64,000 nt of DNA from Nemertoderma westbladi. Its lineage: Eukaryota > Animalia > Xenacoelomorpha. Below, in pieces: positions 10,301-55,100 of the stretch. The notes under the pieces are model-generated. The model had not been told where the DNA came from. It ran no database searches and worked only from the letters and a program-made list of their open reading frames with translations. Location of the stretch: contig JAUCBJ010007687.1 of assembly GCA_032718475.1 (NCBI GenBank), positions 1 to 64,000 on the forward strand. Direction: 5' to 3'. Numbering within the stretch: the stretch's first letter is position 1; each line of letters begins with the position of its first letter. The translations under genes and the position numbers were made by a program.

Positions 10301-11108
10301 GTGCAGAATTTCAACTCATTTAAATTAACCGCTACAAATTAATTGCATTTGTCTGTACCAATAAGGCTGTAGTTATTTGATTGTAACCAATGTCGTGCAA
10401 GTTATATATTAGCTGGACCAATAAGCTATCTTTAAAACCTTGTTAGAACCCATAGAACAATCGAGAATTTTCTCGATTGATTGCAGCACAAATTTAGTAT
10501 ATAAAGGTGCGATTTCGTTCATTAGTTATCTCAATCTCAATCAATCACTGCAATTTCCATCATTCGCTTTCTGTCTTATTTCAGATTACATTGTTTATTG
10601 TATAATAGTTATTATATGTTTGTAATAAAGTCAGAAATACTAGTCACATCTCTCAGCCTTTCTATCTGTTTTAATATGGTTTCACTACGGTGAACAAACT
10701 CAGGGACAGGATGGCCAGCTAGAGATCGGGCCGCAGCAATGAACGGGAACATCACAGGAATGTAGACGAGAGACAACCCGCAATACCATCTTAGAGTTAT
10801 TCGCCCATCGCCTGAAAGGTTAGACAGCGTTCGATCCTTGCTACCTAAGTGTAAGACCAAAGATCAAAGGTAGACGTAGTGACACGCTGCAAGCCTAAAA
10901 TTACATCATAGGGACTGTACTGTCTTGATTCAGGGAAAACCGCAGTAGACCTTCATATTCCTACGGGGGGGGGAGGAGAGAGAGCAGATACTAGTAAGCA
11001 GATAGGACGTAGGCACACCGGTACAAGGCATACACATTGGTTAGGGTGCAGCAAACTGTACGCTTAACTCTTGCTAAGTACAGGTGTGTGTGCGACTATT
11101 TGCCGTAC

Positions 11109-11365
11109 TAGGATCGGCATGCTGCATTGCAGCTGCATTTTTAAGAATGCTGTGCCGGTTTGTCAACAAAATTGCACCGCCACAACTCCCTATCACCCAT
11201 GACATTTGCTAGATCATCCGCATCTTTAAGGCCAGTGTCCTTTAAGATGCGTCTCAAGAAAGTCATGGGCTGTCCACCATGCTTATTCACTCCATGAGGC
11301 TGCCAAAGTACAAGATTATGCACTGGCTGGTCCTCACGGCGAAAGCAATGTCCTGCAAAGGACTA
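11109..11365 (-). mobile_element. 5'-truncated RTE-like LINE 3' end inserted in the 5' LTR
   Basis: Absent from the 3' LTR, which reads CCGTAC-AACG-GTGTCT. It is the reverse complement of ~35666-35920 and encodes HNLVLWQPHG...LWRCNFVDKPAQHS. Confidence 0.9.
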
Positions 11366-12267
11366 GTGTCTATTACATCAGAACTTGTAGGCTAGAGGGT
11401 TGCTGTGTTTTCACCTGAATTGGGATTGTACCGTTCAGGCGGTAGGGCAGTTTACGCTAGGCGCAAATAAATTGAGGCTATCAGGGATATAATAACATCT
11501 ACCGTGTCCCCGCCAACGCCCTAATAGGAAGTTACCCGGACTACCTGGGTGACTAAAATTCTAGATAGGAGCCAGGATAGCTATTAGTACCCGTACGCCT
11601 ACAGTAGTAAACTAACACATCTCTTCTTAGTATCAGGGACCTGGTACCTAAAATTGCCGAATTCTGGGCGTAGTATTAACCTTATGCCTGAATTTGAGTC
11701 CTGGAAATACGCAAGAGGGGAAGGAACCTTATTATTCGTGAGTATTGGACCTACAAGTTATAAAATTAGAATATTCGTAAAATGCACACCGTACCCAGTA
11801 ATTATATATGTGAAGGAGCAAAACTGTTTTTGACCGATCAGAATTAACACACGCGCGTTAGAAATTATTTACACCTCGAAATATATAAAATTAACTTAGT
11901 CCGTACTGTGCTTTGCCCGCTAGTTAGACATCTCCAAATCTGCTCTATACCTAGCTAGCGTCCCTTTGCCCAACCATATAAATCACACCGCGGCAAAGTA
12001 TACGAGCCCCTTAGTCCGTCAGTGAGTCAGCCTGATTTTAGGATTCGCTGCGCGGGATTTGTTTTATCGAAGTTTGTCTGCTCGTAGACTGTTTTCTGCC
12101 TCACCGGTTAAAAGAGATCGATACTGCAATATATTCGCTTACTTGGGGTTTACTGTTTTGGTGAGAAGGTCGGATTTATGATTTGATTTACAAACTTTAC
12201 AGTAGGATATTGCAGGTATTGTTACCGTCTCTTCCGATAGTAGGAATAGGCGTATCTCTCCAATTTA

Positions 12268-12279
12268 GTAGGAATATGA
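12268..12279 (+). promoter_or_regulatory. Non-tRNA primer-binding site of element 1 (GTAGGAATATGA), complementary to LTR 10953-10964
   Basis: Directly follows the TSD-defined LTR end, has no TGG, and is the exact reverse complement of TCATATTCCTAC. Confidence 0.75.
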
Positions 12280-13110
12280 TTATTTAACATATTTCCTAAT
12301 TTAGTAGGAATATGTTTTACTGAACTACGGTTCGGTAGGACAAAAGTTTTTTGAAAAATTTGTATTTTGAGGTAAAAATTTGTATTTGATTAGCTAAGTG
12401 CTAATTTTTGAAATAAAATTTGATTTGAACCGCGTGTAAAATTTTTTGGAATTGAATACCGGTGTTTAAAAGGGTTTAAATACCATATTGTACCGGTACA
12501 AAAATTTTCGTAAAGTAAAACCTAACTCTTTTGTTTTTTCAGGATTCAGAACTCATTTCTAGGCTGTAACGGGAGCAAGACCGTGTTTAGCAAGTTTGGG
12601 AGATAGATAACTCAACAACTTTGGTTGGGAAAATCGCGTTTCGTCCGCAACGTTAAAAACGGAAAGGTTCACGTTCGGTTTGTATCTGGGAATCTGTTTT
12701 TCTGGAGAATTATTGGAGTGGGTGAGTTCGAAAAGTTGCATAAATAAGTTAGGCATTACCGTATTAGTTAAAATTATTGTGGGTTCCACTGTCTCAAGTA
12801 TTTATGCATTCCGTATGATTTTTTTGTTCATTGCTGAATTAGTCCGTATTATTGTATTTAATTTACCTTTTGATAACGCATATCGTTATCCGATTTATTT
12901 GTTATAAAATTGGCCGCTAGGCTAATTTTATTATATACTTATTCCGTGACATTTATTTGCTGTAAAATTGGCCGTTTAGGCTAATTTTATCCATCTGCTA
13001 TAAAATCGGCCGGTAGGCTAATTTTATAAGACTGTAATTAGTACCGTTTTATACAAATACGGTAAACTCGATACTTTGACACTCACTTCACTTGACTTAC
13101 AACTACCGAA

Positions 13111-13512
13111 ATGAGTGACAAACAAGACTATACGAAGAATACACAAACCGACTATGACTCATGTGACGCGGATAAGTCAGCAGCGGGAGAACAACAGGGG
13201 AAGACTCGCGAGCCTACCGAACCTACACCGTGTGCGTCACCAGTACATCCAACGGGAGTACCGGATGCCGTAGTACGAGGCGACGGCAGGACCGAGGACT
13301 TTCTAACTGTTCCGCAACCTAGATATAGGGAAACGGAATTGGTAAGTTCAGCAGGAAGCACAGAAAGTGTGGTTAGAAGCGTCGGAGGTTACATGGCGCA
13401 TATAACCAGGAGTATTGGAGAAGGCCAACGCATATTAGACGGGTTGACCGCTCCGATGTCTCGATTCGAGTTCTACACCCTCCAGGTTAGAGTAAAGTAT
13501 ATAAGTCCGTAG
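13111..13512 (+). CDS. N-terminal Gag segment of element 1, separated from the main ORF by a -1 frameshift near 13491-13502
   Basis: The frame of ORF 13557 is open back to 13491 (KVYKSVDNLVGLQDLARQRQD-M) and overlaps this ORF. RSVGGYMAHITRSI resembles BEL Gag N-termini. Confidence 0.7.
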   Translation: MSDKQDYTKNTQTDYDSCDADKSAAGEQQGKTREPTEPTPCASPVHPTGVPDAVVRGDGRTEDFLTVPQPRYRETELVSSAGSTESVVRSVGGYMAHITRSIGEGQRILDGLTAPMSRFEFYTLQVRVKYISP

Positions 13513-13556
13513 ATAATTTAGTTGGCTTACAAGATCTAGCTAGACAGAGACAGGAC

Positions 13557-16500
13557 ATGGATACTCAACTTAGAATCCTAGAGAAACTAATGATCACTAG
13601 AGAGAAACTGATTCAGTTTAAGTCGACGATTAGACAGATACAACAGGAACAAGCGGACCAGTTGTTAGGTGAGTCAGTTTCGGACGAATTATTACAACCC
13701 GAGGAAGAACAGGAACTGTACCGACTGGATGGACAATTGAAACACCTGACGGATCACTTGCGCATGTGCGGCGAAGACGTCGGGGATTGGGAAACCGTGC
13801 CGGAGGCTACGAGGGAAACTTCACTCGCACAAATCGAATCGGCACCGGGAATACTAAATCAATCGCTGGTGAGTATTCGTAGCGAAATCTGCGAGGGAAG
13901 TATAGTCACGTCAGAAGTTGCTCGACAACAGCAAGAATTCTGCCGACAACGACGAGAAATGGAGGAACAAGCTCAACTTCTAGTGATGCAGGCAGCAGTA
14001 GAGGAAGAGAAGCTACGCGTTGCGAATATAGCGAGAATCTCTCATCTACAGGAACAAGCTGAATTAGAAGCAGCTGAAGTAGAAAGGTTAGAGGTAGACA
14101 TTGCCCGACAAGCGGCAGCGGCAGCGGCAGAGTCAGAGCGACAAGCGGCAGCGGCAGCGGCAGAGTCAGAGCGACAAGCGGCAGCGGCAGCGGCAGAGTC
14201 AGAGCGACAAGCGGCAGCGGCAGCGGCGGAATTAGAACGAGACAGGTTAGTTTCGGAAGCACGGGCCGAAATGAAAACACGGCAAATAAAAGCTCAATCC
14301 GCCATACGACAAGCAGAATTTGAGGCGCAACAACGACAAACGGAACAACGAGAGAAGACAGCTAAACTTCATTTCGAACTTGAGAAGAAGGCGAGAGAAT
14401 TAGCGAACGCTGAGGAAGATCTGGATCAAAAGGCCCGCGATCGATCGATGAGATCTCGTGACGGACATGATTTGGACCAGTTAGAGGTAAGACATCGCCA
14501 AATTCAGGAACGGAAGAAGGAAGGAAGCGTAGGAGCACCCGGACGGGAACGGCAATTAGTAAAAGACGTGTGTCAACGATTCCCACAGGTAACTCATATG
14601 TTTGCACCGGTTACGACTAAGGAACCTGTTTCGATTGCGGGTAGTAGTGATATTTCTCCTATCCATGGTGCGACGGAACACAGGTTTGTTATTCCGAACG
14701 AGTTTATACCGCCAAGAGCAACGTCGTCGCCTATTCCGAGAGTCAAGGTAAGTAACCCACCGATTACAGATCGTAGTAGTTTATTGACCGGACCTGCGCT
14801 ACTGACGACTAAACAGGTGAGTCCACCTTTGACGCCAAAACCCGTTACGCACTACGATTACCCAATGACGTTTCGACCAACAAGGCCTTTGGATTCAAAT
14901 GCTGTCATTCGCCCACCGTTCAACCAATTTACATCGCAATCTACGACTTCGAGGAAGACTTGTGAGCCTACCGAACAACGGAGAACAGTGGATACGCGAC
15001 CGGTTCAGTTTACATCGCAATCTACGACTTCGAGGAAGACTTGTGAGCCTACCGAACAACGGAGATCAGTGGACGATGTTCCGAAACGAGCCGTTAGAAT
15101 TCGTACGACGCAACGGACGCGAGCACGTCGACCACCATATCCAGATGATAGTACTACTTCGAGCGAATCGGATTACCCGAAACGCGAGGTATTTAGAACA
15201 GGGGCGGCCGATGAATATAAACGCGAGCGTTCAGACAACTCCTTTGCAGACAATCCTCCACAGAATACACCAACACAGAAGGCGTTACAACCAACGGACG
15301 CAATTAGTACACAACAGTTCGCCGACATTCTGCGACCAGTTGTCAATAAGTTGGCTCAGATCGAGGAGCGTCTGGAGGAAGTTCAAACCGACAGTTCGAG
15401 AAATTCCGAATTCGAACACAATAGACACCCGAAGGGACCACAAAGACCGGTACCTTCAAACCCCACATCGTATCAGGGAAAAGCGCCCAGAAGGGAGAAC
15501 ATCAACCAGGTTACCAACCAAGGACGCGAAACTCTGAACGTTGCCGAGGAGATAGCGAAATTCGCAGCCAGACAGGGATTGCCGGTACAACAACCACCGA
15601 AGTTCTCCGGTAGCTCAAAACACTGGCATACCTTCGTAGACTATATTGAATCCCAGATCGCCGTGTGCGCCTTTACGTCACGAGAGAAGTTCAATTACTT
15701 GCTCCAAACGTTGTCAGGAGAACCTAAACGTTTGGCGGAGACTTTCGTTGGTGTACCGGACGCTTTCGAACTAGCGTACGATCGTTTGACTTCGATATAC
15801 GGAGGTACAGTGAGTATGGCCAGGTCAGTAATAGAAGAACTCTGTAAGGGAGGGGCTATCACTAAACCCGTCGACTTACTAAAACTGGCTGACGAGATTA
15901 AGAACGCTATCACTACCTTAAGATCAATTGGACAACTTGATTACGGGAATACACCTACAGTCCTATTAAAGATAATAGGACGACTCCACCATCGACTTCG
16001 TCGGGAGTGGAGGAAGGTCGAATATCAGCGAGAGGAGCGAGGAGGATTCCTGAAATTAGAAGATGTGTACCTTTTAATATCCAGGGAGGCGGTAGTAGAA
16101 ACTCGATCTAACTATACCGACCAGCACATCGTGGCAGAAGGGATCACACTGCCATCCTCCAACCGACAAAAACCCCAGACAACATCCACAAAGACGGCCA
16201 CTTACGCCACACCGACGGAATCAAGACAATTCTCAGACGGTAATAGAGTATCTGCGCCCATTGGAACGAAACAGACGAGACAGCAACTCAGCGCCGACTT
16301 CAACGGATGCCAATACTGCGAACATTTGGGTAAGCGGTATATTGGTCACAAGTTACGAGGTTGTCGACAATTTCGCGAGTTGAACTCAGAAGAACGACGG
16401 CTGCAGATACGGCCACTGGACTCTTGTTGGCGGTGTACGCGACACGGACACGTCCGTAAGGATTGCCCAAATACCGACACTTGTCCATCCTGTGGACGCA

Positions 16501-19500
16501 ACCACGACGGTCTGCTCCACACAGACAGCCACACGCCGACGAAACGCTTCGCCAGGGAACACCCGGAAGCAGCAGCGAGATGTGATGCGGCTTACCGAAA
16601 ACGGGAATCGAAAACGACTCCGACTTTCGTGACCCATATAGAGGATTGCTTTTCAGAACAATCCGGATCATCGGACGAAGAATCAGAAGACGACGAATAT
16701 TCAAATGGAGACGAACAACCGTCAATCGCGCTCCTGACCACTGACCAACTGAAGGGATTCAGTGTAATCCCGATTAAAGTTACTGGCACAAAAGGGAGTA
16801 AGAGGATTTACGCGATTCTAGACTCAGCCTCATCTCACAGTTACGTAGATGAAAAGATAGCTGACGTCGTAACAGATCTTAGACAAGGTAAGCACGTCAG
16901 TTATACAGTAAGTAGTATGCACGGCCAGCGTGCAATACCAGTGACACGAGTTAAGTTGGACTTAGACTCTCTTCTTCCAAAATCGCAGCACAGCGAGAGG
17001 GAGAGGTCTTTGTTGCCCTTTAGAGATTTAACCTTTGCGGCCACGAAGGACTTTAGTAACCTACTAGGTCCAGTGCCGGAACAATCTCTGGAGGACCGTA
17101 AGTATTTCAGACACCTTGGTGTACCCGAATGTCCCGTCAATTATAGATCGGTAGCAATGCTGATCGGGACGGACCAATTCAACCTACATCAGGTGTGGGA
17201 AACCAGACCATCGGCAGTTGTAGCAGGAAACGCATACGCCTGCAGAACGCCGATAGGGTGGTATACTCGAGCGCCTGTGCGCACACTGGACGTAAGTGAC
17301 GAGGAAGACGACGTACAGAGTACATGTAGTTTATTGACTACAAACTCAATTCATTCCTTTTCACACGACGTGAACCATACTACGCTACAGTCGACAAAAC
17401 ATCACAGACGTGTAACTAGTATGATAAGTCACAAGGAGCAGCTAACCCACAAGGTGAGTTTAGAAATTGGGGGGAAGATGAGTCAGCTAGAGATTCCATC
17501 GACGACAGATGATAGGCTTGCGAGTCTACCTACCCCAATAACTTCAACAGTGCCCATCGATATCGACGATGACGCGTTGAAAATTCATCAGTTGGAACAA
17601 GCCGCCTTGGACAAAGAATTAACGGAGAAGACTATCAGGTGGTTAGAACAAGATACAGCTGAACCTGGTAGCTACGACCCTTGTATGTCGGAACAGGAGA
17701 AACAATCTCTAAAGATCATGGAGGATACTATCCGACAGACGGAGGACGGACATTACGAGGTGGGGATGTTATGGCGTAGCCAAAGTCCTAAACTTATAAA
17801 TAACTACCCACTGGCTTTAAGACGTCTACACTCAATCCGACAACGTCTATTAAAGGACGAGAAAGCCCATCTGCAGTATAACACTCAGATGGAGACGTAT
17901 TTGACGAAGGGATACGCTATCCGAATGACTAACCCGGAGCGAGTGACAGACCAGACGTACTACTTGCCACATCACTATGTGAGACATCCCGACAAACCAG
18001 ATAAAGTACGCGTAGTCAATGACTGTGCGGCTCTGTTTGAGGGAATGTCCCTCAATAGTGAATTGATGGATGGACCGAACATGAATAACTATCTTATGGG
18101 GGTGATTATGCGCTTCCGTCAGCGTCAAGTAGCCTTTACTTGCGACGTAGAAGCGATGTTTCACCAAGTGAAAGCGTTAGAGCGAGACAGAGACAGTTTG
18201 CGGTTTCTCTGGTATCCGGAAGGGGACTTAAGTCTACCACCAGCGACTTACCAAATGCAAGTTCGCGTTTTCGGTGCCAGAGACAGCCCGAATTGTACGA
18301 TGTACGCCTTGAAGCAAGCCGCTAGAGATCAGAAACATCTGTATGACCCAGAGATAGTTAGAATTGTAGAACGTGACTTTTACGTTGATGACGGTTTACA
18401 AAGTTGTGACACAGTAGAACGTGCTACAACAGTAGCACATCAATTACGGGACTGCTTGGCGGGCGGAGGTTTTAACCTCACCAAATTCGCCTCAAACAGT
18501 GCCGAATTAGTTGACTCATTCGGAACTACTGAGCGTGGAGGTGGTGATATAGACCTAGAGTTCGAACCACTACCGACGACTAAGGTGTTGGGGCTCTTTT
18601 GGGACCCAAACACAGACAACTTTCGAGTGAAGGTGAGACTGGACAGTCAAGGAGACACACTGACCAAGAGATCATGCTTGTCAAAGTTGAGCCGATTGTT
18701 CGATCCGTTAGGATTCATCAGTCCAGTAATACTGCAAGCTCGCATTTATATGCGCAGTATATGGAAGGATGGACTAACGTGGGACGAGCCGATCTCATCA
18801 GATCAAGTGGACTTATGGAAGACCTGGGAGGCGGAATTGTCTTCGTTAGAGGATTATTCCATACCCAGGGTTTACTTTCCATTACAGAGTACATTTCCTG
18901 ACAACTTGGAACTACACTGTTTTTCTGACGCCAGTGACAACGGTTTTGGTGTGGCAGCGTATTTGCGCAGACAAGTAGAATCAGACGAGTTCGATGTTTC
19001 GCTCATTACTTCCAAGGCTAAGACCATGCCTACTAAGTATATGACGACACCACGAGCCGAGCTACAAGCCGCGACCCTGTCAACCACCATCGTGAACCTC
19101 ATACAGACAGAACTACAGTCGAGTTTACAGATATTTTATTGGACTGACGCGACGTTAGTTTTATTTTACATAAACAACGACACACTCGAATTCAAGACAT
19201 TCGTAGCTAACCGTCGCGCGGAAATTCTAGACCGTTCGATAAAAGAGGATTGGCGACATTGTCCCGGACCACAAAACCCAGCTGATATTGCGTCGCGAGG
19301 AATGATGCCTGAGGAATTCTGTAAACCGGAGAACAAAGAGTTTTGGCAACACGGACCCCAGTTCTTGCAGAAATCGACACAAGATTGGCCTCCGTTATAC
19401 GACAACAAGTCCAACACCATTCCAAAGGACGCCGAAATCAAGAAACCAAAAAAGGGGAAGACAAAGAAAAAGACAACGGCGACAAAACTCAAGAAAAAAC

Positions 19501-21749
19501 CGAAGGCGAAATGGAAAGATATAACTTCAAAGGTCAAGAGAGGAAGACTTGCGAGCCTTTCTACACCAGACATATCGCCAGACGGTCAACCAGACACGTT
19601 ACTAGACAGTCAACCAGACATTTTGCCAGACATATCACAAAATGTTCCACCAGACGTTAGTAACGCACTGACAAACAGTAAAGCCGCAGTTTCCCTATTG
19701 GAGCGGCCTTCTATTGACAAACAACCAGATACGTTACCAGACGTATCGCCAGACACACTACTAGACAGTCGACTAGACACTAGTAATGTATTGACTAACA
19801 ATAAAGCCGCAGTTTCCCTATTGGAGCGGCCTTGTATTGACAAACTACCAATTTTGACACACTTGAGCAACCATAAGCACGGTGAAACCTCATGTATTAC
19901 AGATGTGGGTAGTACCTACGCTAATGTAAATACAGGTGTTACTTTGCGCTCAAGAGACATACCGAACTTGCAACCTATGTCGAAACCTGGGATTAATGTC
20001 GGCAGGAAAATAAGTTTACCGAAACCTGCTGACCCCATAGAGTTCAAACCACCATTAGCGATCGACTTACAAAGTACCGACAATCAAGGTAAGAAGACAA
20101 AGAAGGACAAATTACTTGTAGACCCGGACGGATCAACAGTCAACAAGGGAATACTTACCGGCGGACCCGTGGGCCCTTCTAGTAATTCAAAACCTTCCAA
20201 GTTCTCCATTGACTTACCTGATGACGTCACAAATACTTACGTCGACCGTATTGTAAACTTAACAGATTCTTGGTCAAACGCTTGCCGAAAATTAGCGTGG
20301 ATTGTACGTTTTGTACAATACGTTAAAGGCAAACGTGACTTTACACGTCGACTTACATTGGCTGAGATTGAAAGGTGTGAGATTAAATTAATTCGCCATT
20401 ACCAACTGCGATATTTCGCGCGCGAATTCACATCTATACATCAAGGTCAACCAATCAAGTCGTCACCGATACTGAGTTGGAGTCCGATAATTTATAATGG
20501 CTTAATTTGTCATAAATCTCGGCTTCAAAACATTGACTTTAACACAAACTTTAGGTACCCAATAATAATACCGCAACATCACGAACTACAACGTGCAATG
20601 ATACTGGACGCACATTTACATCTGAAACACGCTGGAAGACACCACTGTCTTTCCTACTTACGTACTAGATTTGTATTAATTAGACCCAGTAAAGCATTAA
20701 GTTCAGTGACACGTACGTGTATTATTTGTAAAAAGGTACATTCTAGAATAGGTACCCAAGAAATGAGTGAACTACCACAAGCACGACTTCAAGCATTCAG
20801 ACCACCTTTTACAGAGACTGGAATTGATTGCTTTGGTCCCATACATACTAAACGTGGACGTATACTAGTAAAACGCTGGGGACTGATTTTCACATGTATG
20901 TCCAGTAGGGCAGTTCACATTGAACGTGTGATGGATCTTTCCACCAACGCGTTTATACTAGCACTGCGGCGATTTATCGCTAGACGCGGACTAGTGAAAT
21001 GCTTGTACTCAGACCAAGGGACAAACTTCGTTGGTGCTCGGAATGAGATCGCTAGAGCCTTTAAGAAATTAGATCACGATCAAATCTCGAACGAACTACA
21101 ACCTCACAAGATTGTTTGGAAGTTTAATCCTCCAGATAGTCCTTGGAGAGGCGGAGTCTGGGAGAGATTGATTAGATCTATAAAGACAGCCATGGCAAAA
21201 GTCATTCCAGTAAACCACATATTAACAGACGACCAACTGACAACATTGTTTGTTGAAATCGAGGCAATACTAAATACTAGACCAATAGTATTAGTACCCG
21301 ATGACAAACAATCTCAGTTCGCTTTAACACCAGCACACCTGCTTATGCAGGCACCGACCACATTGACGCCGATTTCCATTCCAATGGAAAGCGATAGTTA
21401 CGGTAGAAAAGCGTGGAAAATCACGCAACTACTGGCTAACAAATTCTGGGAAATATGGCAAAACCATTATTTGCCCTCTATTTCTGCCAGAACAACATGG
21501 TACAATAACACCCGTGCATTAAAGCCGGGAGATCACGTGCTGTTGGCAGAAGTGAATCTGAAAAGACGCTTCTGGATAACAGGTGTCATTTTAGCCACAC
21601 ATCCATCTATGGATGGAGTGACAAGAACTGTGACGGTACGGACAATTGACGGTCGTACAGTAGACAGACCGACTCAACGTCTCGTACTCCTTGAAGAGAC
21701 TCGTAACGAGTCTGGAGATTACAAATCTCCACCTAATACTAGTAAATAA
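13557..21749 (+). CDS. BEL/Pao Gag-Pol polyprotein (2730 aa)
   Basis: Capsid-like PKFSG...EKFNYLLQTLSGEP; three Zn knuckles (CQYC..H..C, CWRC..GH...C, CPSC..HDGLLH); protease AILDSAS; RT YYLPHH...RVVND...DVEAMFHQ...FYVDD; RNase H LHCFSDAS...PRAELQAA...WTDA...NPADIASRG; integrase H..HAG...CIIC, GIDCFG, SDQGTNF, WERLIRSIK. Confidence 0.97.
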   Translation: MDTQLRILEKLMITREKLIQFKSTIRQIQQEQADQLLGESVSDELLQPEEEQELYRLDGQLKHLTDHLRMCGEDVGDWETVPEATRETSLAQIESAPGILNQSLVSIRSEICEGSIVTSEVARQQQEFCRQRREMEEQAQLLVMQAAVEEEKLRVANIARISHLQEQAELEAAEVERLEVDIARQAAAAAAESERQAAAAAAESERQAAAAAAESERQAAAAAAELERDRLVSEARAEMKTRQIKAQSAIRQAEFEAQQRQTEQREKTAKLHFELEKKARELANAEEDLDQKARDRSMRSRDGHDLDQLEVRHRQIQERKKEGSVGAPGRERQLVKDVCQRFPQVTHMFAPVTTKEPVSIAGSSDISPIHGATEHRFVIPNEFIPPRATSSPIPRVKVSNPPITDRSSLLTGPALLTTKQVSPPLTPKPVTHYDYPMTFRPTRPLDSNAVIRPPFNQFTSQSTTSRKTCEPTEQRRTVDTRPVQFTSQSTTSRKTCEPTEQRRSVDDVPKRAVRIRTTQRTRARRPPYPDDSTTSSESDYPKREVFRTGAADEYKRERSDNSFADNPPQNTPTQKALQPTDAISTQQFADILRPVVNKLAQIEERLEEVQTDSSRNSEFEHNRHPKGPQRPVPSNPTSYQGKAPRRENINQVTNQGRETLNVAEEIAKFAARQGLPVQQPPKFSGSSKHWHTFVDYIESQIAVCAFTSREKFNYLLQTLSGEPKRLAETFVGVPDAFELAYDRLTSIYGGTVSMARSVIEELCKGGAITKPVDLLKLADEIKNAITTLRSIGQLDYGNTPTVLLKIIGRLHHRLRREWRKVEYQREERGGFLKLEDVYLLISREAVVETRSNYTDQHIVAEGITLPSSNRQKPQTTSTKTATYATPTESRQFSDGNRVSAPIGTKQTRQQLSADFNGCQYCEHLGKRYIGHKLRGCRQFRELNSEERRLQIRPLDSCWRCTRHGHVRKDCPNTDTCPSCGRNHDGLLHTDSHTPTKRFAREHPEAAARCDAAYRKRESKTTPTFVTHIEDCFSEQSGSSDEESEDDEYSNGDEQPSIALLTTDQLKGFSVIPIKVTGTKGSKRIYAILDSASSHSYVDEKIADVVTDLRQGKHVSYTVSSMHGQRAIPVTRVKLDLDSLLPKSQHSERERSLLPFRDLTFAATKDFSNLLGPVPEQSLEDRKYFRHLGVPECPVNYRSVAMLIGTDQFNLHQVWETRPSAVVAGNAYACRTPIGWYTRAPVRTLDVSDEEDDVQSTCSLLTTNSIHSFSHDVNHTTLQSTKHHRRVTSMISHKEQLTHKVSLEIGGKMSQLEIPSTTDDRLASLPTPITSTVPIDIDDDALKIHQLEQAALDKELTEKTIRWLEQDTAEPGSYDPCMSEQEKQSLKIMEDTIRQTEDGHYEVGMLWRSQSPKLINNYPLALRRLHSIRQRLLKDEKAHLQYNTQMETYLTKGYAIRMTNPERVTDQTYYLPHHYVRHPDKPDKVRVVNDCAALFEGMSLNSELMDGPNMNNYLMGVIMRFRQRQVAFTCDVEAMFHQVKALERDRDSLRFLWYPEGDLSLPPATYQMQVRVFGARDSPNCTMYALKQAARDQKHLYDPEIVRIVERDFYVDDGLQSCDTVERATTVAHQLRDCLAGGGFNLTKFASNSAELVDSFGTTERGGGDIDLEFEPLPTTKVLGLFWDPNTDNFRVKVRLDSQGDTLTKRSCLSKLSRLFDPLGFISPVILQARIYMRSIWKDGLTWDEPISSDQVDLWKTWEAELSSLEDYSIPRVYFPLQSTFPDNLELHCFSDASDNGFGVAAYLRRQVESDEFDVSLITSKAKTMPTKYMTTPRAELQAATLSTTIVNLIQTELQSSLQIFYWTDATLVLFYINNDTLEFKTFVANRRAEILDRSIKEDWRHCPGPQNPADIASRGMMPEEFCKPENKEFWQHGPQFLQKSTQDWPPLYDNKSNTIPKDAEIKKPKKGKTKKKTTATKLKKKPKAKWKDITSKVKRGRLASLSTPDISPDGQPDTLLDSQPDILPDISQNVPPDVSNALTNSKAAVSLLERPSIDKQPDTLPDVSPDTLLDSRLDTSNVLTNNKAAVSLLERPCIDKLPILTHLSNHKHGETSCITDVGSTYANVNTGVTLRSRDIPNLQPMSKPGINVGRKISLPKPADPIEFKPPLAIDLQSTDNQGKKTKKDKLLVDPDGSTVNKGILTGGPVGPSSNSKPSKFSIDLPDDVTNTYVDRIVNLTDSWSNACRKLAWIVRFVQYVKGKRDFTRRLTLAEIERCEIKLIRHYQLRYFAREFTSIHQGQPIKSSPILSWSPIIYNGLICHKSRLQNIDFNTNFRYPIIIPQHHELQRAMILDAHLHLKHAGRHHCLSYLRTRFVLIRPSKALSSVTRTCIICKKVHSRIGTQEMSELPQARLQAFRPPFTETGIDCFGPIHTKRGRILVKRWGLIFTCMSSRAVHIERVMDLSTNAFILALRRFIARRGLVKCLYSDQGTNFVGARNEIARAFKKLDHDQISNELQPHKIVWKFNPPDSPWRGGVWERLIRSIKTAMAKVIPVNHILTDDQLTTLFVEIEAILNTRPIVLVPDDKQSQFALTPAHLLMQAPTTLTPISIPMESDSYGRKAWKITQLLANKFWEIWQNHYLPSISARTTWYNNTRALKPGDHVLLAEVNLKRRFWITGVILATHPSMDGVTRTVTVRTIDGRTVDRPTQRLVLLEETRNESGDYKSPPNTSK
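14106..14228 (+). repeat. 33-bp coding tandem repeat (RQAAAAAAESE, ~3.7 copies) in the Gag coiled-coil region
   Basis: CGACAAGCGGCAGCGGCAGCGGCAGAGTCAGAG is repeated in tandem. Confidence 0.9.
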
Positions 21750-34386: not shown

Positions 34387-34439
34387 GCTTGATACTAGAA
34401 CAAAGCTTCGCAGGACATTATTTTCGCCGTGAGGACCGG
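34387..34439 (+). mobile_element. Left part of an older RTE-like LINE fragment split by element 2a (continues at 49935)
   Basis: CTTGATACTAGAACAAA...GCAGGACATT.TTTTCGCCGTGAGGACC matches ~35639-35698. The continuation ACCAGCCAGTGCATAATC starts at 49935. Confidence 0.75.
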
Positions 34440-35110: not shown

Positions 35111-35920
35111 ATATGACTTAGGAGTACTCTCAGAATCATTAGAGGGAGCCCAACGGCTCCTCAGCTCATTAGAACATGCTGCTTCTAGTGTTGGTCTTTT
35201 TATTAACTCCAGAAAGACCAAAATTCTGACCGTTAACTTTGAAAGTCCTCATCAAGTCTCTGATCGGATGAGCATAAGCTCAAAGGATGGTATGCTTGAG
35301 CATGTGGACGACTTCTGTTACCTGGGATCATGGATCCGGAAGTCAGGTGAGGACCTTCGAATACGTAAGGGAAAGGCATGGGCAGCCTTGAATAGGCTTT
35401 CCAGGATTTGGAAGTCACCGAGAATTAATCGGAAACTTAAGGTCCGATTATTTAGAGCAGCAGTAGTTCCAGTACTCCTCTACGGGAGTCCATGCTGGGC
35501 TCTAACTGCTGAGGACACCAAATCTCTGGATGGGACATTCACAAGAATGCTACGCCGGGTTCATTGTGTCAAGTACAATGCACAGATCTCCAACCAGACA
35601 CTATATAACATTGGAGGTGTCTCATTGGTTCCCCCAAGCTTGACACTAGAACAAAATCGCCTCCGCTTTGCAGGACATTGCTTTCGCCGTGAGGACCAAC
35701 CAGTGCATAATCTTGTACTTTGGCAGCCTCATGGAGTGAATAAGCATGGTGGACAGCCCATGACTTTCTTGAGACGCATCTTAAAGGACACTGGCCTTGA
35801 AGATGCGGATGATCTAGCAAATGTCATGGGTGATAGGGAGTTGTGGCGGTGCAATTTTGTCGATAAGCCGGCACAGCATTCTTAAAAATGCAGCTGCAAT
35901 GCAGCATGCCGATCCTAGTA
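35111..35920 (+). mobile_element. 5'-truncated RTE-like LINE (RT C-terminal region), replacing part of the 2a 3' LTR
   Basis: DLGVLSES...VGLFINSRKTKIL, then LEHVDDFCYLGSWI...IRKGKAW.A.NRLSRIWKS...KVRLFRAAVVPVLLYG...RLRFAGHCFRR. Ends GATCCTAGTA; the copy ending near 50197 has a (TAG)n tail. Confidence 0.9.
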
Positions 35921-36195
35921 CACTGTATTAAGAGTATTTTGACGCATTGCGGCATAAAATGGCTTGTTATGTCCGCCAAAGTACACATACAGAATAATGG
36001 CTTTTTATGTCCGCTAAAACACCTACACAGTAAGAAAATGGCTTTTTATGTCCACTAAAATACCTACACAGTACTTTGCGGGGAAAATGACTAGCTATAT
36101 CCGCAAAAGCTTTTACACCGCTCCCAGAAAATGGGATTTAATTCTATAAAATATAAAAAATCACAGTTTCTAAAATATAAAAATACTCTAAACAG

Positions 36196-45000: not shown

Positions 45001-46845
45001 CCTTGCGCATGAAATACTTCAGACCTAACAGGTTGACACATTGTTACAGGGGGTGGTGGTATACCCTTTTGTCTATTTACTAATTTATCGCGTTCTAACG
45101 CGATACTCTGCTGCACTTCTTGCAACTCTAACCTACTTTCCCTTAAGGTTCCCTTGAACTGTTGAACAGTCTCCTGCATCTGCCCGAGCAGGAGATCCAT
45201 CCCCCGCCGTCTCTCATCCACCCACTCGACCGCCGAAGCGGGAGCTGCCAACATAGTAGCGGGTAGACGAGGGACAACGGGCGACAAATCATTGATATCT
45301 CGCTCGGAGTCCAGGACAGGAACTGTCTCAGGGGCTGTTCTGCTGGGCACAGGTAGTTTAGTGCTGTGCAAAGGGAATTTAGAGGTAGGTTCTGGGAGTA
45401 AAGGTGTCTCTATCACCGAAGGGGTGGCTTCGAGAACAGGCCTAATTATTTCAGGCACATCTACTATAGTAGGGAGTCTTTCTACTCTAATAATTTGGTC
45501 TGTGGGTTCTGTAATACCTAAGTCTGTGTTAGCTAGTTGCCTTCTCACAGCTGGGGGCAATTAGGCAATTTCTGACGGTGGGGCGTTCTTCTACGCCTAC
45601 TTAGACGAGATCTATTTCCTCCGCCTTCAGGATCGGTGGTATCGCCTTCATCAGATGATGTAAATCCCTGTCTTTTTGGAGTAGATCGACTTATCATCTG
45701 CATTTGACTAGCTGTTAACTGTTTATTTATGTAGTCTTGCTTCTCTTGAAGATTTTCCAACTCTAGTTGGGTGGTCTCTTCAGACGCCCTCCGTTCTGCT
45801 TCTGCCACTGCCTCTGCCGCTTTTCTTTCCGCTTCTGCCGCTGCCACTGCCGCTTTTCTTTCCGCTTCTGCGGCCTTTCTTTCAGCTTCTGCGGCTGCCA
45901 TTGCCGCTTTCCTTTCAACTTCTGCCGCTGCCGCTGCTGCTATCTTTCTGTCTTCTATACGTTTTTTCTTTACTTGTTCTTCTTGGACCCTAGCGATGCG
46001 GATGCTTTCATCAAATTTAGCTTGATTCGCAGCTAACATTTCCGCATCTATTGCGTCCAACACAAGCTTGGCTCCTTCACTATTAGGACGAAGTCCAGAC
46101 AGCCTTCTCCTCAACTCTTCGTCACCTAGAAATCGTTGATAGTCTGACAGATAGATGTCAATAGCATCCTTCTTCTGCGGTTTCTCTGCTGTCGCTTCGC
46201 TTTCCACTTGAGAAAAGGTAGCGTCTGTTGATTCTCCGTGGGTTGAGCGCTCAGCCAGCTGAAATTTCCGTTCCTTGAACCTTGAGACTCACCCGCTGAA
46301 ACCAAGTCTTTACGGCAACTTGCAACGACGTGTCTTGTCTTCTTTTCGAAGCCTCCTCAAAGGCCGATAGGATTAGTCTGATTCTTAGAATTCTTTCTCC
46401 AACTTGATAAAGCAGCTCTCCCTGCTCTTGAGGTCCTTGGGGTTGTCGAAACAGTTGGAAACAATACCCTAGTGAGTACGGCTGCAGGAAGAATGAGAAG
46501 GGGATCCGAATAAATCGCATCTGCCATCTTTGCTCTGCGCTCGGGAGTCAGCTCTACAGTATCCGAACTACTGGAGCTATCGGGCCGCTGAGAAATAAGT
46601 TCTCGGCTCGGGTGTTGCTGCTGTTTAACAGCTGCTTCTTGGTCCCGCTTGACTCGAGCCCGAGTGCCTATGATAGACCTACGGTGTTGGACTAGCCTAG
46701 GGTCTAATACTACTTCTGGAGGGATGATCTTTCTTACAGTAGGAGGTGAGTTGAACTTCGGTCTCAAACGTTCCACACTCCTATCTGGGTCACAGATGGT
46801 TGTATCTAGGAGACTGTCTGACAGGTTTTGCTTTGTGTCAGACAT
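39029..46845 (-). pseudogene. Disrupted BEL/Pao gag-pol of copy 2a
   Basis: Fragments 46845-46357, 46207-45545, 45560-44247 (capsid-like), 44185-42665 (Zn knuckles, protease ALLDSGS), 42490-41261 (RT YMDD, RNase H LHVFGDAS) and 41155-39029 (integrase), separated by stops and frameshifts. Confidence 0.93.
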
Positions 46846-48769
46846 GTTTGTTTATACAGTTGAATGCCTACTGCTATATTACAGTTAAAGCAAGTCTAGT
46901 AATTCAGTATCAACTGTTAGCGTAGTAATTAATTACCGATATCGTTACTCTATGTAACGCGATATATATACAATATATTAGAATACCGGTATACACTTAT
47001 AGTATATATATAAGTATTATTACAGACTAGGTTTGTCACAGAATACCGGTATATAATTTCAGCACAAATATATATAAATATATAATAAGCCTATCATGAA
47101 TACCGGTATACAACTTACACTTATTGTATATAAGTATAATTATAGACTAGAATTAATTACAGAATACCGGTATATAATTTCAGCTCAAATTTATAGAAAT
47201 AAATATAATAAGCCTATTGTAAATACCAGTATGTCAATTATTTTAGAATAATTGAATTTCTGAATTTTAGGGGTTACTTGGTTACTTTACTTTACTTTAT
47301 TACCGTTATTTAAGCAGTAGTCCAACTGATATTAAGACCTAATTGTTGTATGACAGGCCTACTATTTTATAAATCGGTTTGAGTTGACTTATAATATATA
47401 TATATATATACCCTGTAATGGGTTTTGTCAATATTTGAAATAAATATTATTATTTCTGGTAAGGAGTCACTTCACAGAAGCTAAACGCTCTCAGTGTAGT
47501 GCTACTTATTGTATTGGACACTAAAACAAATAATTCTAATTTACTAAGTTACTTATTACTACAACTTATGTACAATTGCGGGGTGAGATTACAATCTCTA
47601 AATAAACACAAAAAAATTACAAGTACAAATTTTAGGGGTAATTTTACAAGAAATCTACAAACCAGCCTAACAAGGGGTTATAATTTCTGGTTATTACAAT
47701 GGACAGGATACTACGGTATTTGAAAATAATAAAGCAGTAGTAAATATATTGTGCTGTCTAGATAGGAAAAATACCACCGTCTGACGACTTATAGCCGTAA
47801 CGCTATAAGTACTACATTATGTACCCGAAGTGTTCCTACCTAGAAGTTAATTACCGCAGCCTACTATAGCTAACGTGCCTATTAACAACTTTACAACACA
47901 AATATACTGCCTACAAACTAATTACTTTCGGAAAGCACTGTACACTAAACCCTAAATTAGGTACAAGTACTTATACAACAAATATCCAGCAGTTAAAAAT
48001 ACTTGTACAGCTAAAAGAACCACGGTATCTGCCGGAGTGACTAGAGCATAAAATCACCAGTCTTTACCTACGCCAAACAGCCCTGATGTAGTACCGGGGT
48101 TAATTTAACTATAACGGTATGTATAACAAGCACAATTACTGTTGGAATAAACTTGGGGTTATGAATGTTGCAAATAATCGCATATACTCTGAATAATAGA
48201 TATTACGCTACCCATACAGACTACACAAACAAAATACAGACCGAACGCTGGCAGACTACTATCAAGCCCAAATAAACTACAGTATATGCAGACTCCGAAA
48301 TGGTTAGTTAGTATGCGTTCTAACCGAGTAGTACGACTTATTCTTTCGGGGGGGGGGGGGATTTACCTTACAGCACTGGATGCCCCCACATTCCTAACTA
48401 GTACTTTATCGGACATACACTCTACACACACTGCAATCTCTTCAGACCTAACAACAGCCAGACAACAATCCAGCCTACAAATTATTTATACAATCTGAGC
48501 AGGTTACACGCCTTCTGCTCAATATTAACTTACAGATAAATAAAACTGACAGAAATAAGTAAAATCTCAATAAAAAACCAGGGCTGCAGTCCCTGATTAA
48601 ATATCAAGACGTACCGGTATATAATTATCAAAATTGAATAATACTGATGTACCTGTACTGCTGTAAGTACCGGTAAGGGTGGTTAGGTAGTTAGGCCTAC
48701 TGGTTACCGGTCGACCGGTACTTTTGCCTTAATTGCCTACGTTGCAATGTAGAAAGCTATAACTGTTAT

Positions 48770-49934
48770 TGTTCGCGCTTTTAGACCTTTAGCAGTTTAA
48801 CCTGCCAAATTTAGGTGTCTTCTAGGTTATAAATCGACTTTAGCCTATAACAAGTATTTGATATACATAAAGTTACATTAGCCGAAGCCAGCCTATGCGC
48901 GATCATTCACCCACGGTTAAGGGAGACTGGATTCGGATGCTCTGACCTTATTGCGGTGTAGACCTACTGTATTATTCGATTGATCGTTACTATAATATCT
49001 CTGACAAATATTATTCACTTTCGGGAAATATTAACAGTTCCTTTAGGACGTGGCGCTCTAAGTATGTAAACAGAGTTATGACTTACACTAAACACAACGG
49101 GATGGCTAGTGATTCACGTATAAAGCGCATTCTTTAGGAAATGCTTTGTTATCTGTCATACTCATGCACATTACCGCACACTGCTGCACACTGATCTGCC
49201 GACCTTCACTAAATTTGATCATATGTAAGGAGAACAGCAACTGACACATGTAGGGCCTATGAAATAGCATTCAATTCACTCCAAAACCACTATAATGTAA
49301 GTCGCAATTGCTATATGTAACCGGTCTCTCTAACCTTCAGTATATCAAGAAGATTGGGGTTTTCTGATTATTTATCGATATTCTCCAAATATAACAACAT
49401 ATCCATCAACTGATACAATTAATAACCGACAGTAAATAGCAGTAAAATAATGCGGTGTTTGTATGTGATCAGGTTTGACAATATGACAATATGATAACAG
49501 TTATACGTTTCTATGATCAAAGCTGTTCTAATGTTTGGCTAATAATAATTCCACAGCCGATGTTCTGGGCTCAGGTAAAAAGGTAAACAAAGACCATAAT
49601 GCATTGCGCGATTTCCCGGAGGCTTCTGTGCAAATAAAATGAAAATCGCTCTGATTGGTCGAGTGAGTGAGCCTGAACAAAGAAAGCCAAAAGCTCCACA
49701 TCGACATATCAGCTGATAGATGTCGTCTTCTAAACTACACTGTATTAAGAGTATTTTGACGCATTGCGGCATAAAATGGCTTGTTATGTCCGCCAAAGTA
49801 CACATACAGAATAATGGCTTTTTATGTCCGCTAAAACACCTACACAGTAAGAAAATGGCTTTTTATGTCCACTAAAATACCTACACAGTACTTTGCGGGG
49901 AAAATGACTAGCTATATCCGCAAAAGCTTTTACA
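48770..49934 (-). repeat. 5' LTR of copy 2a (1165 bp, TGTAAAAG...GCGCGAACA)
   Basis: Both ends match the 3' LTR remnants, and it is homologous to 52152-53331. Confidence 0.9.
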
Positions 49935-50197: not shown

Positions 50198-50200
50198 GTT

Positions 50201-51230: not shown

Positions 51231-51515
51231 ACAAACACAACTAGTTTATTTACCGGTACATATAGTACTATAAAACTCATTATACAACCCGTTTTGGTTT
51301 GATTTTTCATTATTCTTTGTACATTTATACACTCATTTTCTTATTGCCTTCGCTTTGCTCGGCGAATATCTTACCGCAACGCTATAAAGTGATACTTTTT
51401 GATCAACAAAAAATTATGAATGCGTCTAGTTATTATTATTATGTAATATACTCAGTGATCGTAAAGTAAATTACTATCGCTCTGAATATACTTTATAGTA
51501 ATTTTATTAGTTTCA

Positions 51516-52151
51516 CATGGGAACAATGTAGGCCTACAGTACAGTATACAGGACATGGGAACTATGTAGGCTTACAGTACAGTATACAGGACATTGCAAC
51601 TATGTAGGCCTACAGTACAGTATACAGGACATGGGAACTATGTTGGCCTACAGTACAGTATACAGGACATGGGAACTATGTAGGCCTACAGTACAGTATA
51701 CAGGACATGGGAACTATGTAGGCCTACAGTATACAGTATACAGGACATGGGAACTATGTAGGCCTACAGTACAGTATACAGGACATGGGAACTATGTAGG
51801 CCTACAGTACAGTATACAGGACATGGGAACTACATTATGTAGGCCTACAGTACAGTATACAGGACATGGGAACTATGTAGGCCTACAGTACAGTATACAG
51901 GACATGGGAACTATGTAGGCCTACAGTACAGAAGACAGGACATGGGAACTACAGTATGTAGGCCTACAGTACAGTATACAGGACATGGGAACTACGGGTA
52001 TATGGCCTACAGTACAGTATACAGGAGATTGGAACTATGTAGGCCTACAGTACAGTATACAGGACATGGGAACTATGTAGGCCTACAGTACAGTATACAG
52101 GACATGGGAACTATGTAGGCCTACAGTACAGTATACAGGACATGGGAACTA
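51516..52151. repeat. 38-bp minisatellite (~16 units) GGGAACTATGTAGGCCTACAGTACAGTATACAGGACAT
   Basis: Direct tandem period of 38 bp with the internal palindrome TGTAGGCCTACA; abuts the 2b LTR. Confidence 0.95.
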
Positions 52152-55100
52152 TGTAAAAGCTTTTGCGGACATAACAAGTCATTTTTCCCGCAATGAGCAG
52201 TGTAGGGGCTTTTGCGGACATAACAAGTCATTTTTCCGCAATGCGCAGAATACTTTAAAATAGCCCTGAATTTGTCCAACTATGCGACGGGAGGGAATTG
52301 GAGCTGGTGTGACGACATCTATCAGCTGATTCTCTGTGGACGTGGAACTTTTCTTTGTTCTGCCTCGTCAGCCAATCAGAGCGATTTTCCCCCTTATGTC
52401 TGACAGAGGCCTATGGAAACCCGCGCAATGCATTACGGTCTTTGTTTACTATTTTTCTGAGCACCAGAACCGGCTCGGAATCTTCTGTACTTCTGTGTAG
52501 AAGTTTCAGACTTTGGCCTAAACATCAGATGGCTTTGATTATAAGAATGTAAATCTATTATCCAACCACCTACCTGGATCATTTACTTCTCCTGAAACTC
52601 ACCTGACTGCCTGACTTTCATAACTGCATAAGTAACACATACTGACTGTTCACCGCATTATTTTACTTCTGTTATTAATTGTTGTTATATTGATGGATAT
52701 TGTTGTTATATTATGAGAATACCGATAAATAATCATAAAACCCCCAATCTTCTTGATTACTGAAGGTAAGAGGAACAGGTTTACCGGTAGCAGCTGCGAC
52801 TTAAATTATAGTGGTTTTTGTGTGAATTAAATGCTATTTCATAATCCCTACAAGTGTCAGTTGCGATCTTCCTTATATATGATCAAATTCAGTGATGGTC
52901 GGCAGATTAGTGCGCAGTAGTGTGAAGTAGTGTGAAGTAGTGTGAAAGATAATAAAGCATCTCCTAAAGAATGCGCTATTTACGAAACTCTGTGGCCATC
53001 TAGTTGTGATAAGTATAAGTCATAACTCTGTTTTTATACTTAAAGCGCCACGTCCTAAAGGAACTGTTAATATTTCCCCGAAAGTAAATATATTTGTCAG
53101 AGATTATATAGTAACGATCAATCGAATAATACAGTAGGTCTACACTGCAATAATTCTCAAAGCATCCGAATCCAGTCTCCCAAAACCGTGGGTGAATGAT
53201 CGCGCACAGACTGGCTTCGGCTGATGTAACTTCAGTACACTAAATAATCGATATAGGCTAAAGTCTATTTATAAACAAGAGGACAACTAAAATTGGCAGG
53301 TTAAACTGCTAAAGGTCTAAAAGCGCGAACAATAATAGATTTTTTATCTTGATTGCACAGTAGGCAATAAATATTTTGTCTATTGTTCTGGTAAGAACAA
53401 TAATAGATTTTAAGTTTCTTTATTGCGCCGTAGGCAATAAAGTCGAATGTACCGGTCAGACGGTAAACTGTAGGCCTAACTGCCAAACCACCCGAACCGG
53501 TACTTACCGGTACCAGTATTATTTCGATTGTGATATATTGTATATTAGTAGGCTGTTTAAGAAAGTAGGGACTGTACACCCCTTATTTCTTTTAGAGCTT
53601 ATTTATTTCTGTCAGTTTTATTTATCTGAAAGTGTAATATTGAGCAGAAGGTGTGTATAAACCTGCTCAGATTGTATAAATAATTTGTAGGCCAGATTGT
53701 TGTCTAGCTGTTGTTAGGTCTGATGCGATTGCAGTGTGTGTAGAGTGTCTGTCCGATAAAGTGCTAGTTAGGAAGGTGGGGGCATCCAGTGTTGTAAGGT
53801 AAATCCCCCCCGAAAGAATAAGTTGTACTACTTGGTTAGAACGCCTACTAACTAACCATTTCGGAGTCTGCATATACTGTAATTTATTTAGGCTTGACAG
53901 TAGTCTGCCAGCATTTGGTCTGTATTTTGTTTGAATCGTCTGCAAGGGTAGCGTAATATTTATTATTCAGAGTTTATGCGAGTATTCGCAACCACCAACT
54001 CCCCAAGTTTATTCCTACAGTAATTGTGCTTATTATACATACCGTTATAGTTAAATTAACCCCGGTACTACATCAGGGCTGCTTGGCGTAGGTAAAGACT
54101 GGTGATTTTGTGCTCCGGTCACTCCAGCAGATACCGTGGTTCTTTTGGCTGTTCAAGTATATTTAACTGCTGGTTATTTGTTGTATAAGTACTTGTACCT
54201 AATTTAGGGTTTAGGGTACAGTGCTTTCCGAAAGTAATTTAGTGTGTAGGCAGTATATTTGTGTTGTAATGTGGTTAAAAGGCATGTTAGCTCTGGTTGG
54301 CTTCGGTAATTAACCTCTAGGTAAGGACACTCCAGGTACATAACGTAGTACTTATAGAGCTAAGACTATAAGTCGTCAGACGGTGGTATTTTCTTATCTG
54401 GACAACGCAACTTACTTACTACTGCTTTATTGTTTTCAAATACCGTAGTTTCCTGTCAGTTTGTAAGAACCAGAAATTCTAACTCCTTGTTAGGCTGGTT
54501 CGTAGATTTCTTATAAAATTACCCTAAAAAAATGTATGTGTAACTTGTTATTGTTTATTTAGAGATTGTAATCTCAAACTGTAATTGTAAGTAATTTGTA
54601 GTGATAAGTAACTTAGTAAAGTAGAATTATCTGTGTAGTGACTCCTTATCCAGAAATAATAACATTTATTTCAAATATTGTCAAAACCCATTATACAGGT
54701 ATATATATATTTATAAATCAACTCAAACAGATTTATAAAATAGTAGGCCTGTTATACATCAATTAGGTCTTAATATCAGTTGAACTACTGCTTAATAACA
54801 GTAATAAGTAAAAGGGAAGTAACCCTAAAATTCAGAATTTCAGTTATTATAAAATAATTGACATTACCGGTGCGGTATTTACGGTAGGCTTATTATATAT
54901 TATTATATAAATTTAGGCTAAAAATAAGTACCGGTATTCTGTGACTAAATCCTAGTCTGTAATAATACTTATATATATACTATAAGTGTATACCGGTATT
55001 TTAATATTATATATATATCACGTTACACTGAGTAATGGTATCGGTAATTAATTACTAGGCTTACAGTTGATACTGAATTACTAGACTTGCTTTAACTGTC

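Follow-up and report, generated by a model that had tools for sequence, protein, structure and literature searches.

Candidate self-priming BEL/Pao retrotransposons in a contig of Nemertoderma westbladi

Introduction

How does a BEL/Pao retrotransposon begin minus-strand DNA synthesis when no tRNA-type primer-binding site (PBS) follows its 5′ long terminal repeat (LTR)? The question is raised by a 64,000-nucleotide (nt) stretch of Nemertoderma westbladi DNA (Xenacoelomorpha; GenBank assembly GCA_032718475.1, contig JAUCBJ010007687.1, positions 1 to 64,000 of the forward strand), referred to here as the window, which carries three BEL/Pao elements: element 1, and copies 2a and 2b of a second family. 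A preliminary description, made from the letters alone, proposed that these elements prime with their own RNA, since the sequence after each 5′ LTR is complementary to a site within that LTR. The analysis reported here favors self-priming of minus-strand synthesis, to which we assign a probability of about three in four; the further suggestion of a primer made up of the first 11 to 12 nt of the mRNA, as in Tf1, is doubtful.

Replication of BEL/Pao elements is treated as tRNA primed, and as poorly understood, by the ICTV, the international body for virus taxonomy, and in reviews. In the ICTV account of Belpaoviridae (Semotivirus), the PBS is 18 nt long and is one for tRNA-Arg or tRNA-Gly, the LTRs measure 0.2 to 1.2 kb, and the genomes 4.2 to 10 kb (PMC8742986), and a passage on the insect BEL/Pao element Achilles gives a tRNA-Tyr-like PBS (PMC4580426). 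Self-priming is described for Schizosaccharomyces pombe Tf1, which, in the portions available of two sources, primes with the first 11 nt of its mRNA following release by RNase H (PMC7175516, PMC4600332); excerpts from two others place this primer in a three-duplex "pretzel" (bioRxiv 10.1101/2022.12.06.519325) and report that about half of Tf1 cDNA retains a copy of the PBS (PMC11042837). For plants, a section of PMC6317226 predicts self-priming in Tcn1 (Ty3/gypsy) and TAR (Ty1/copia; Houba, Osr-1) elements from at least 10 complementary nt starting 0 to 5 nt past the LTR.

Each PBS is complementary to the LTR that precedes it

In all three elements a complement of an LTR-internal site begins at the first base after the 5′ LTR (offset 0) and spans 12 nt in element 1, 12 nt in 2a, and 11 nt in 2b, as initially described, with the site 1,303, 724, and 770 nt, respectively, from the LTR end (Table 1). 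None of the three LTR ends has a TGG within 56 nt, also in agreement with the preliminary description. When each LTR was subjected to 2,000 dinucleotide shuffles and the best of offsets 0 to 3 was taken, 1 shuffle reached the observed match length for element 1, 3 for 2a, and 14 for 2b; at leader offsets 20 to 299 the sole equal match is the duplicated PBS copy of 2b. The LTR ends had been taken as fixed by target site duplications (TSDs) or homology, which stands for element 1 (an exact GTGGT) and for 2b (homology with 2a), while the 2a TSD (CTGGT/CCGGT) is inexact, matching at only 4 of 5 positions. Copies 2a (minus strand) and 2b (plus strand) form a second BEL/Pao family with coding regions broken in both; they are 91% identical in the reverse transcriptase-RNase H (RT-RH) region, versus 43 to 45% between family 2 and element 1, and because they are related the three elements amount to two independent families. 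A search of public sequencing runs listed no RNA run with the window sequence. Contigs of one public run, which contains 0.36 of the sequence words, have no variant at either the element 1 or the 2a PBS among those listed; two further runs gave no alignment.

A primer built across a splice junction was also considered for the three window elements and was rejected, as the best match across a junction in their LTRs, 8 nt, falls short of the contiguous one. Separately, the LTR end and PBS recur as tandem units, with five PBS-like copies starting with GTAGG in element 1 (12202 to 12346) and two units in 2b (53332 to 53410). The oldest-looking unit of element 1 comes after CA, and the units may record repeated slips at second strand transfer, which may also explain the TA end of that element. 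The 2a PBS begins with ATAAC (48765 to 48769), the same five letters as the start of the Tf1 PBS given in an excerpt of PMC11042837, a likeness that is probably due to chance.

Paired changes between copies 2a and 2b

The strongest single fact is the covariation between the two copies of family 2. With 2a and 2b in register, 3 of the 11 pairs differ and all three are changed on both sides (rough chance, 2 × 10⁻⁴); exchanging partners between the copies shifts the duplex energies from −11.4 and −8.0 kcal/mol to −4.3 and +0.4 kcal/mol. A second helix of 5 to 6 bp lies past a small internal loop, 3 to 8 nt upstream of the site, and carries two further both-side changes together with one A-to-G wobble, bringing the pair to five compensated changes in total. 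Plus-strand copying of a primer would rewrite the PBS from the LTR, so covariation in the primer helix would be automatic; the second helix cannot come from copying, which suggests selection on the pairing itself.

Self-complementarity recurs in related elements

Complementarity in related families had been put forward as a check on self-priming, and it is present in most of those with fixed LTR ends. An RT-RH alignment search of aquatic-sample DNA fetched 78 metagenome loci and 18 contigs from metagenome-assembled genomes (MAGs); a search of viral contigs for related elements gave no locus. Each locus was scored against its own LTR: the sequence at offsets 0 to 4 past the LTR was compared with it for the longest complement, either contiguous or across a GT-AG junction. 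Set A comprises the 9 of 78 loci with homology-fixed LTR ends, and set B the 16 without a fixed end, the remaining 53 having no usable LTR region or being duplicates. Set C was drawn from the 18 later loci under the same rule and comprises 7 that have fixed ends, leaving out ten without usable ends and L096 (of the L032 family, with a ragged end).

Eight of the nine set A loci give a self-complement of 11 to 15 nt (2 contiguous, 6 spliced), and none of 132 cross-pairings reaches 10. For set B, 8 of 16 reach 11 (one from the same family as a set A locus) versus 4 of 240 controls. Five of seven set C loci pass (1 contiguous, 4 spliced), rising to six with relaxed splice sites, and 0 of 70 cross-pairings reach 11. 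Sets A and C together thus have 13 of 16 loci passing at 11 to 15 nt, 3 contiguously and 10 solely across a predicted LTR intron, with 0 of 202 cross-pairings reaching 11. The PBS letters differ among all families, whose RT-RH identities are 36 to 61%, and TGG occurs near the LTR end in 1 of 16 relatives (L088, offset 1). The primer 3′ end is AC or AT in 17 of the 18 families scored, and, with a loose hexamer list, a poly(A)-type hexamer lies between the primer end and the LTR end in all nine set A relatives. A FastTree phylogeny (L023 and L038 excluded, midpoint rooted, no named outgroup) joins element 1 and family 2 in one long-branched clade with support of 99 among these relatives, and contiguous and spliced primer types are intermixed on it, with 5 changes each.

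These data bear on two alternatives. Inverted repeats arising by chance, or a protein-binding motif repeated in AT-rich DNA, might be suspected from the near-palindromic 2a PBS, from the fivefold occurrence of the element 1 motif near the LTR end, and from the 14 of 2,000 shuffles for 2b taken alone; three offset-0 matches, the compensated changes, and the relatives, of which 13 of 16 pass as opposed to none of the 202 controls, largely refute this idea and leave it a negligible probability. A host tRNA fragment or small RNA could instead be the primer, with the LTR site a decoy or copy. Priming by tRNA is the ICTV description of the family (PMC8742986), primers of the half-tRNA kind are known in Copia lineages according to part of PMC6317226, and L088 has its TGG at offset 1. 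Against this, the PBS differs at 3 of 11 positions between copies that are 91% identical in RT-RH, it differs by family, and it tracks the LTR it belongs to, often over a predicted splice junction. Since the PBS always follows its own LTR, a conserved host RNA cannot explain it; the PBS conservation expected of tRNA-fragment (half-tRNA, Copia-type) priming is absent, and we consider host priming very improbable.

Three side observations concern the relatives. The two LTR copies of L047 (1 to 326 versus 6694 to 7103, 88% identical) differ in that one has acceptor-like sequence where the other has a contiguous primer site, and it is possible, judging from these copies, that the family has both intron-bearing and intron-free forms. 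The sister elements L081 and L083 show joint changes of the PBS and the end of exon 1 at three positions, spanning the predicted splice junction. The 18 contigs L079 to L096 carry animal BEL/Pao elements although they come from bacterial MAGs, and are likely host contamination.

Position of the putative primer in the RNA

In the proposed route, genomic RNA would start at or upstream of the site and would acquire its poly(A) tail past the site in the 3′ LTR. The site and PBS would then form a helix of 11 to 12 bp, to which family 2 would add its second helix of 5 to 6 bp, and a cut after the 3′-terminal A-C or A-U, probably by the RT-RNase H of the element, would free a 3′-OH. RT would copy U5 and part of R (the unique 5′ and repeated regions of the RNA) down to the cut and then jump to the 3′ LTR, and plus-strand synthesis would finally copy the primer, regenerating the PBS from the LTR site so that changes look compensated. 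Element 1 carries RNase H motifs, and cleavage by the putative enzyme would release the primer. A poly(A)-type hexamer past the primer site, as in the set A relatives, is present in element 1 (11466) and 2b as well.

The strict Tf1 geometry is a sub-case of self-priming in which the site is the first 11 to 12 nt of an mRNA with a TATA-less start, so that one cut is enough. It is consistent with the folding of element 1 and 2a, whose predicted helices reach 0.87 to 1.0 for an RNA that begins at the site; with this start, a 7-bp stem joining the sequence that follows the primer to the U5 end is predicted in element 1 too, and in L021 the TATA spacing sets the RNA start at the primer. Other evidence points upstream. 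The clearest predicted promoter of element 1, of CCAAT/TATA type, lies about 450 nt upstream of the site and points to an RNA start near 10530, approximately 425 nt upstream of it; in L026, L047, and L059 the primer end is preceded by TATA at a distance of 120 to 280 nt; and in 10 of 13 passing relatives the site arises solely after the predicted splice. The covarying second helix of family 2 lies upstream of its site as well, and its formation requires the RNA to extend a minimum of 8 nt in that direction. The strict geometry is thus unlikely, and a primer inside R is somewhat more probable than one at the very 5′ end of the mRNA. The preliminary description had also pointed to TCATATT at the start of the element 1 site as an initiator; it fits YYANWYY, but so short a pattern is common (an estimated one per 100 nt or so) and the fit is no evidence of a start site.

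Several observations weigh against self-priming, or against its simplest form. The Tf1 pretzel is not conserved, as its U5-side duplex is unenriched across 18 families (p = 0.30); a strong candidate for this duplex is found only in element 1, L005, and L031, and the leader-side duplex is absent from the element 1 and 2a folds. The upstream second helix is weakly enriched across families (−6.1 versus −4.8 kcal/mol, p = 0.009), with neither the first element 1 PBS copy nor 2b showing this. Under the fixed rule L059, L087, and L094 are misses; L087 gives 10/11, and L059 gives 11 once its LTR end is shifted by hand, which was not counted. The near-palindromic 2a PBS matches its own site at 10 of 11 positions as a direct repeat too, so 2a is weaker if taken alone, and neither primer site is covered by the public contigs (13 on element 1, 158 on 2a). 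Predicted pairing in element 1 is 0.98 for an RNA starting at the site and 0.0 for starts at 10925, 10850, 10700, and 10528; that of 2a varies from 0.03 to 1.0 with RNA start and temperature, and that of 2b is 0.0. Such modeled folds of 1- to 2-kb RNAs are weak evidence either way.

The main difficulty for self-priming is the upstream AATAAA of element 1, at 10624, between the TATA box and the site. If the copy of this signal in the 3′ LTR were always used, the site would fall in U5, and a template cut in cis would fail at first strand transfer. That problem vanishes if the helix is structural or regulatory, acting in packaging, dimerization, or a translation switch, with a protein or the RNA 3′ end of another genome copy as the primer; moreover, the covariation shows pairing, not priming. 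Against a structural role, the helix always ends 0 to 4 nt from the LTR end, is nearly always 11 to 12 bp, and is accompanied by no other PBS, placement that a mere stem does not need, and we consider this explanation improbable. Self-priming has in its favor the offset-0 matches, the compensatory changes, the absence of TGG, and the relatives.

A wider scenario has even odds in our judgment: a broad aquatic-animal BEL/Pao lineage may have dropped tRNA priming in favor of an R-internal self-primer cut by its own enzyme, mostly needing host splicing of a 5′ LTR intron, so that splicing would license reverse transcription, with the window families as an intron-free form (through intron loss or as the ancestral state). 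Within the element 1 LTR, a strongly splice-acceptor-like pyrimidine tract ends at 10584 and is followed about 40 nt later by AATAAA (10569 to 10629); the arrangement resembles the acceptor-primer-poly(A) layout of the short LTRs of the relatives, as if an older LTR module might lie inside the larger one.

Comparison with known elements

All three elements are BEL/Pao, as the preliminary description had it: PF03564, PF05380, PF17921, and PF18701 were found in each. They have the Peptidase_A17, DUF1759, DUF5641, and integrase domains of the superfamily and its PR-RT-RH-IN (protease, RT, RNase H, integrase) order, and the full gag-PR-RT-RH-IN motif order is seen in element 1; LTRs, a purine tract, and a short (5-bp) TSD are present too, with an exact TSD in element 1, one matching at 4 of 5 positions in 2a, and a 5′ LTR only in 2b. 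Among 2,246 protein relatives found, the named ones in the 120 listed are all animal proteins, the nearest of those listed having 39 to 43% identity and belonging to sea urchins, corals, a mussel, a ribbon worm, and fish. Unlike the BEL/Pao elements of the ICTV account, these have no PBS of 18 nt that would pair with the 3′ end of a tRNA, and element 1 has TA...TA ends and LTRs near 1.9 kb without inserts. Belpaoviridae are defined by pol phylogeny, so the missing tRNA PBS marks a variant, not an exclusion.

The window elements are like S. pombe Tf1 and Tf2, Tj1, Tosmo, and the Tf1/sushi group, so far as these are covered in the sources available in part, in having no tRNA PBS and an approximately 11-nt PBS at the 5′ LTR complementary to their own LTR transcript, and in the proposed release of the primer by RNase H. 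They differ from Tf1/sushi in superfamily, the pol being of BEL/Pao type and not that of a Ty3/gypsy chromovirus; in a primer that is not necessarily the mRNA 5′ end and is probably often internal; and in the distance between site and PBS, which is 0.7 to 1.3 kb in the window, most relatives assembling the site across a predicted intron. The plant Tcn1 and TAR elements are predicted to self-prime by the same sequence criterion in the accessible text on them, and belong to other superfamilies; they show that self-priming has had more than one origin, and a case in BEL/Pao is for that reason plausible and not wholly without precedent.

No report of self-priming in BEL/Pao elements was found in the literature searched, with Repbase, GyDB, most subscription journals, and supplements outside its scope. 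A term search found no discussion of a PBS or tRNA in the text available of PMC554778, PMC3118150, PMC6238403, and PMC2774666, and BEL self-priming is unreported in the available sections of PMC3601003, PMC5443660, PMC6934838, and PMC8220671. The finding would be a variant form of a known mechanism, in a superfamily for which no such report was found. Caenorhabditis elegans Cer7 is said to encode its own primer, which could lower the novelty; the literature search gave no confirmation.

If self-priming is correct, BEL/Pao would be the third superfamily with it, implying repeated loss of tRNA dependence, and the failure of PBS-based annotation on these elements would be explained. It would also pose the question of how RT-RNase H cuts an RNA:RNA duplex with an internal primer. 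Such elements would escape control by 3′ tRNA fragments.

Structure of the elements and surrounding DNA

The window is animal-type repeat DNA with 40% GC, and its features are listed in Table 1. The 5′ and 3′ LTRs of element 1 have 1 mismatch over their first 1,021 nt, and their termini are TA...TA, not TG...CA. An LTR end two bases farther, with a 3-bp TSD, was rejected because TA...TA with a 5-bp TSD suits both junctions.

Table 1. Coordinates of retrotransposon and repeat features in the window
Feature	Positions	Strand	Remarks
Element 1 candidate self-primer	10953..10964	+	Exact complement of PBS
Element 1 PBS	12268..12279	+	12 nt, offset 0, without TGG
Element 1 second PBS copy	12304..12314	+	11/11, in duplicated LTR-end unit; degenerate units at 12202, 12240, 12335
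Copy 2a candidate self-primer	49494..49505	-	12/12 with PBS
Copy 2a PBS	48758..48769	-	Offset 0
Copy 2a leader arm of second helix	48750..48755	-	Pairs with 49513-49508
Copy 2b candidate self-primer	52551..52561	+	11/11 with PBS; three compensated changes versus 2a
Copy 2b PBS	53332..53342	+	Offset 0; identical second copy at 53400-53410
Element 1 predicted RNA polymerase II promoter	10358..10505	+	CCAAT at 10358, 10387, 10418; TATA at 10498-10505; motif scan
AATAAA	10624..10629	+	Upstream of primer site, between promoter and site
AATAAA	11466..11471	+	Downstream of primer site; poly(A) signal that self-priming would need
37-bp satellite	1257-10096 and 27595-30409		About 239 copies in the first tract and 76 in the second; element 1 lies between
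Element 1 left TSD	10083..10087	+	GTGGT, inside 37-bp satellite
Element 1 right TSD	27595..27599	+	GTGGT, exact 5-bp duplication
Element 1 5′ LTR	10088..12267	+	2,180 nt, TA...TA; later 261-nt insert at about 11105-11365
Element 1 3′ LTR	24706..27594	+	Later 958-nt insert at about 26130-27087; short purine tract precedes
Element 1 gag-pol frame	13491..21749	+	2,752 amino acids (aa) stop to stop: DUF1759, protease, RT, RNase H, integrase, DUF5641
Element 1 extra 3′ open reading frame	22449..24110	+	553 aa stop to stop, between pol and 3′ LTR
Copy 2a 5′ LTR	48770..49934	-	1,165 nt, TG...CA
Copy 2a 3′ LTR remnants	34440..36117	-	First 199 nt (36117-35919), last 85 nt (34524-34440); middle is other DNA
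Copy 2a gag-pol	39029..46845	-	Broken by stop codons and frame changes
Copy 2b 5′ LTR	52152..53331	+	TG...CA; end set solely by homology to 2a
Copy 2b gag-pol	55303..61669	+	Broken by stop codons and internal deletion

The long frame of element 1 contains Peptidase_A17 along with the DUF1759, integrase, and DUF5641 domains, and its RT and RNase H motifs are in order. An ATG-initiated open reading frame of 133 aa (13111 to 13512) overlaps its start in a different frame, and the overlap may be a programmed shift or a break. The extra 3′ open reading frame contains a pair of CCHC knuckles plus a third motif resembling a knuckle, its only zf-CCHC matches being weak, and its product could be a second nucleocapsid-like RNA chaperone. 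The 958-nt insert in the 3′ LTR, with a 7-nt tandem tail and a 4-bp duplication, is likely a non-LTR retroposon.

A tRNA-like stretch is present in U3 (the unique 3′ region) of element 1 (10211 to 10301), with an A box (10221), a B box (10269), and a T run, and recurs near 24839 in the 3′ LTR. Elsewhere in the window the A/B-box pattern is absent, and 1 of 2,000 base shuffles of the LTR has it; ARAGORN and Rfam gave no call for the stretch in U3. It is possibly a Pol III promoter or insulator. As a self-encoded primer it was rejected, since its 3′ end mismatches the PBS and ARAGORN and Rfam were empty.

No 3′ LTR of copy 2b is present within the window. A short non-autonomous repeat, ending in CTAG before T and without a clean TSD, is found at 11105 to 11365, 35666 to 35921, 49935 to 50125, and the 34440 flank; it lies within the 5′ LTR of element 1 and within the 3′ LTR of 2a, was also the target of 2a, and may be a putative Helitron-like element.

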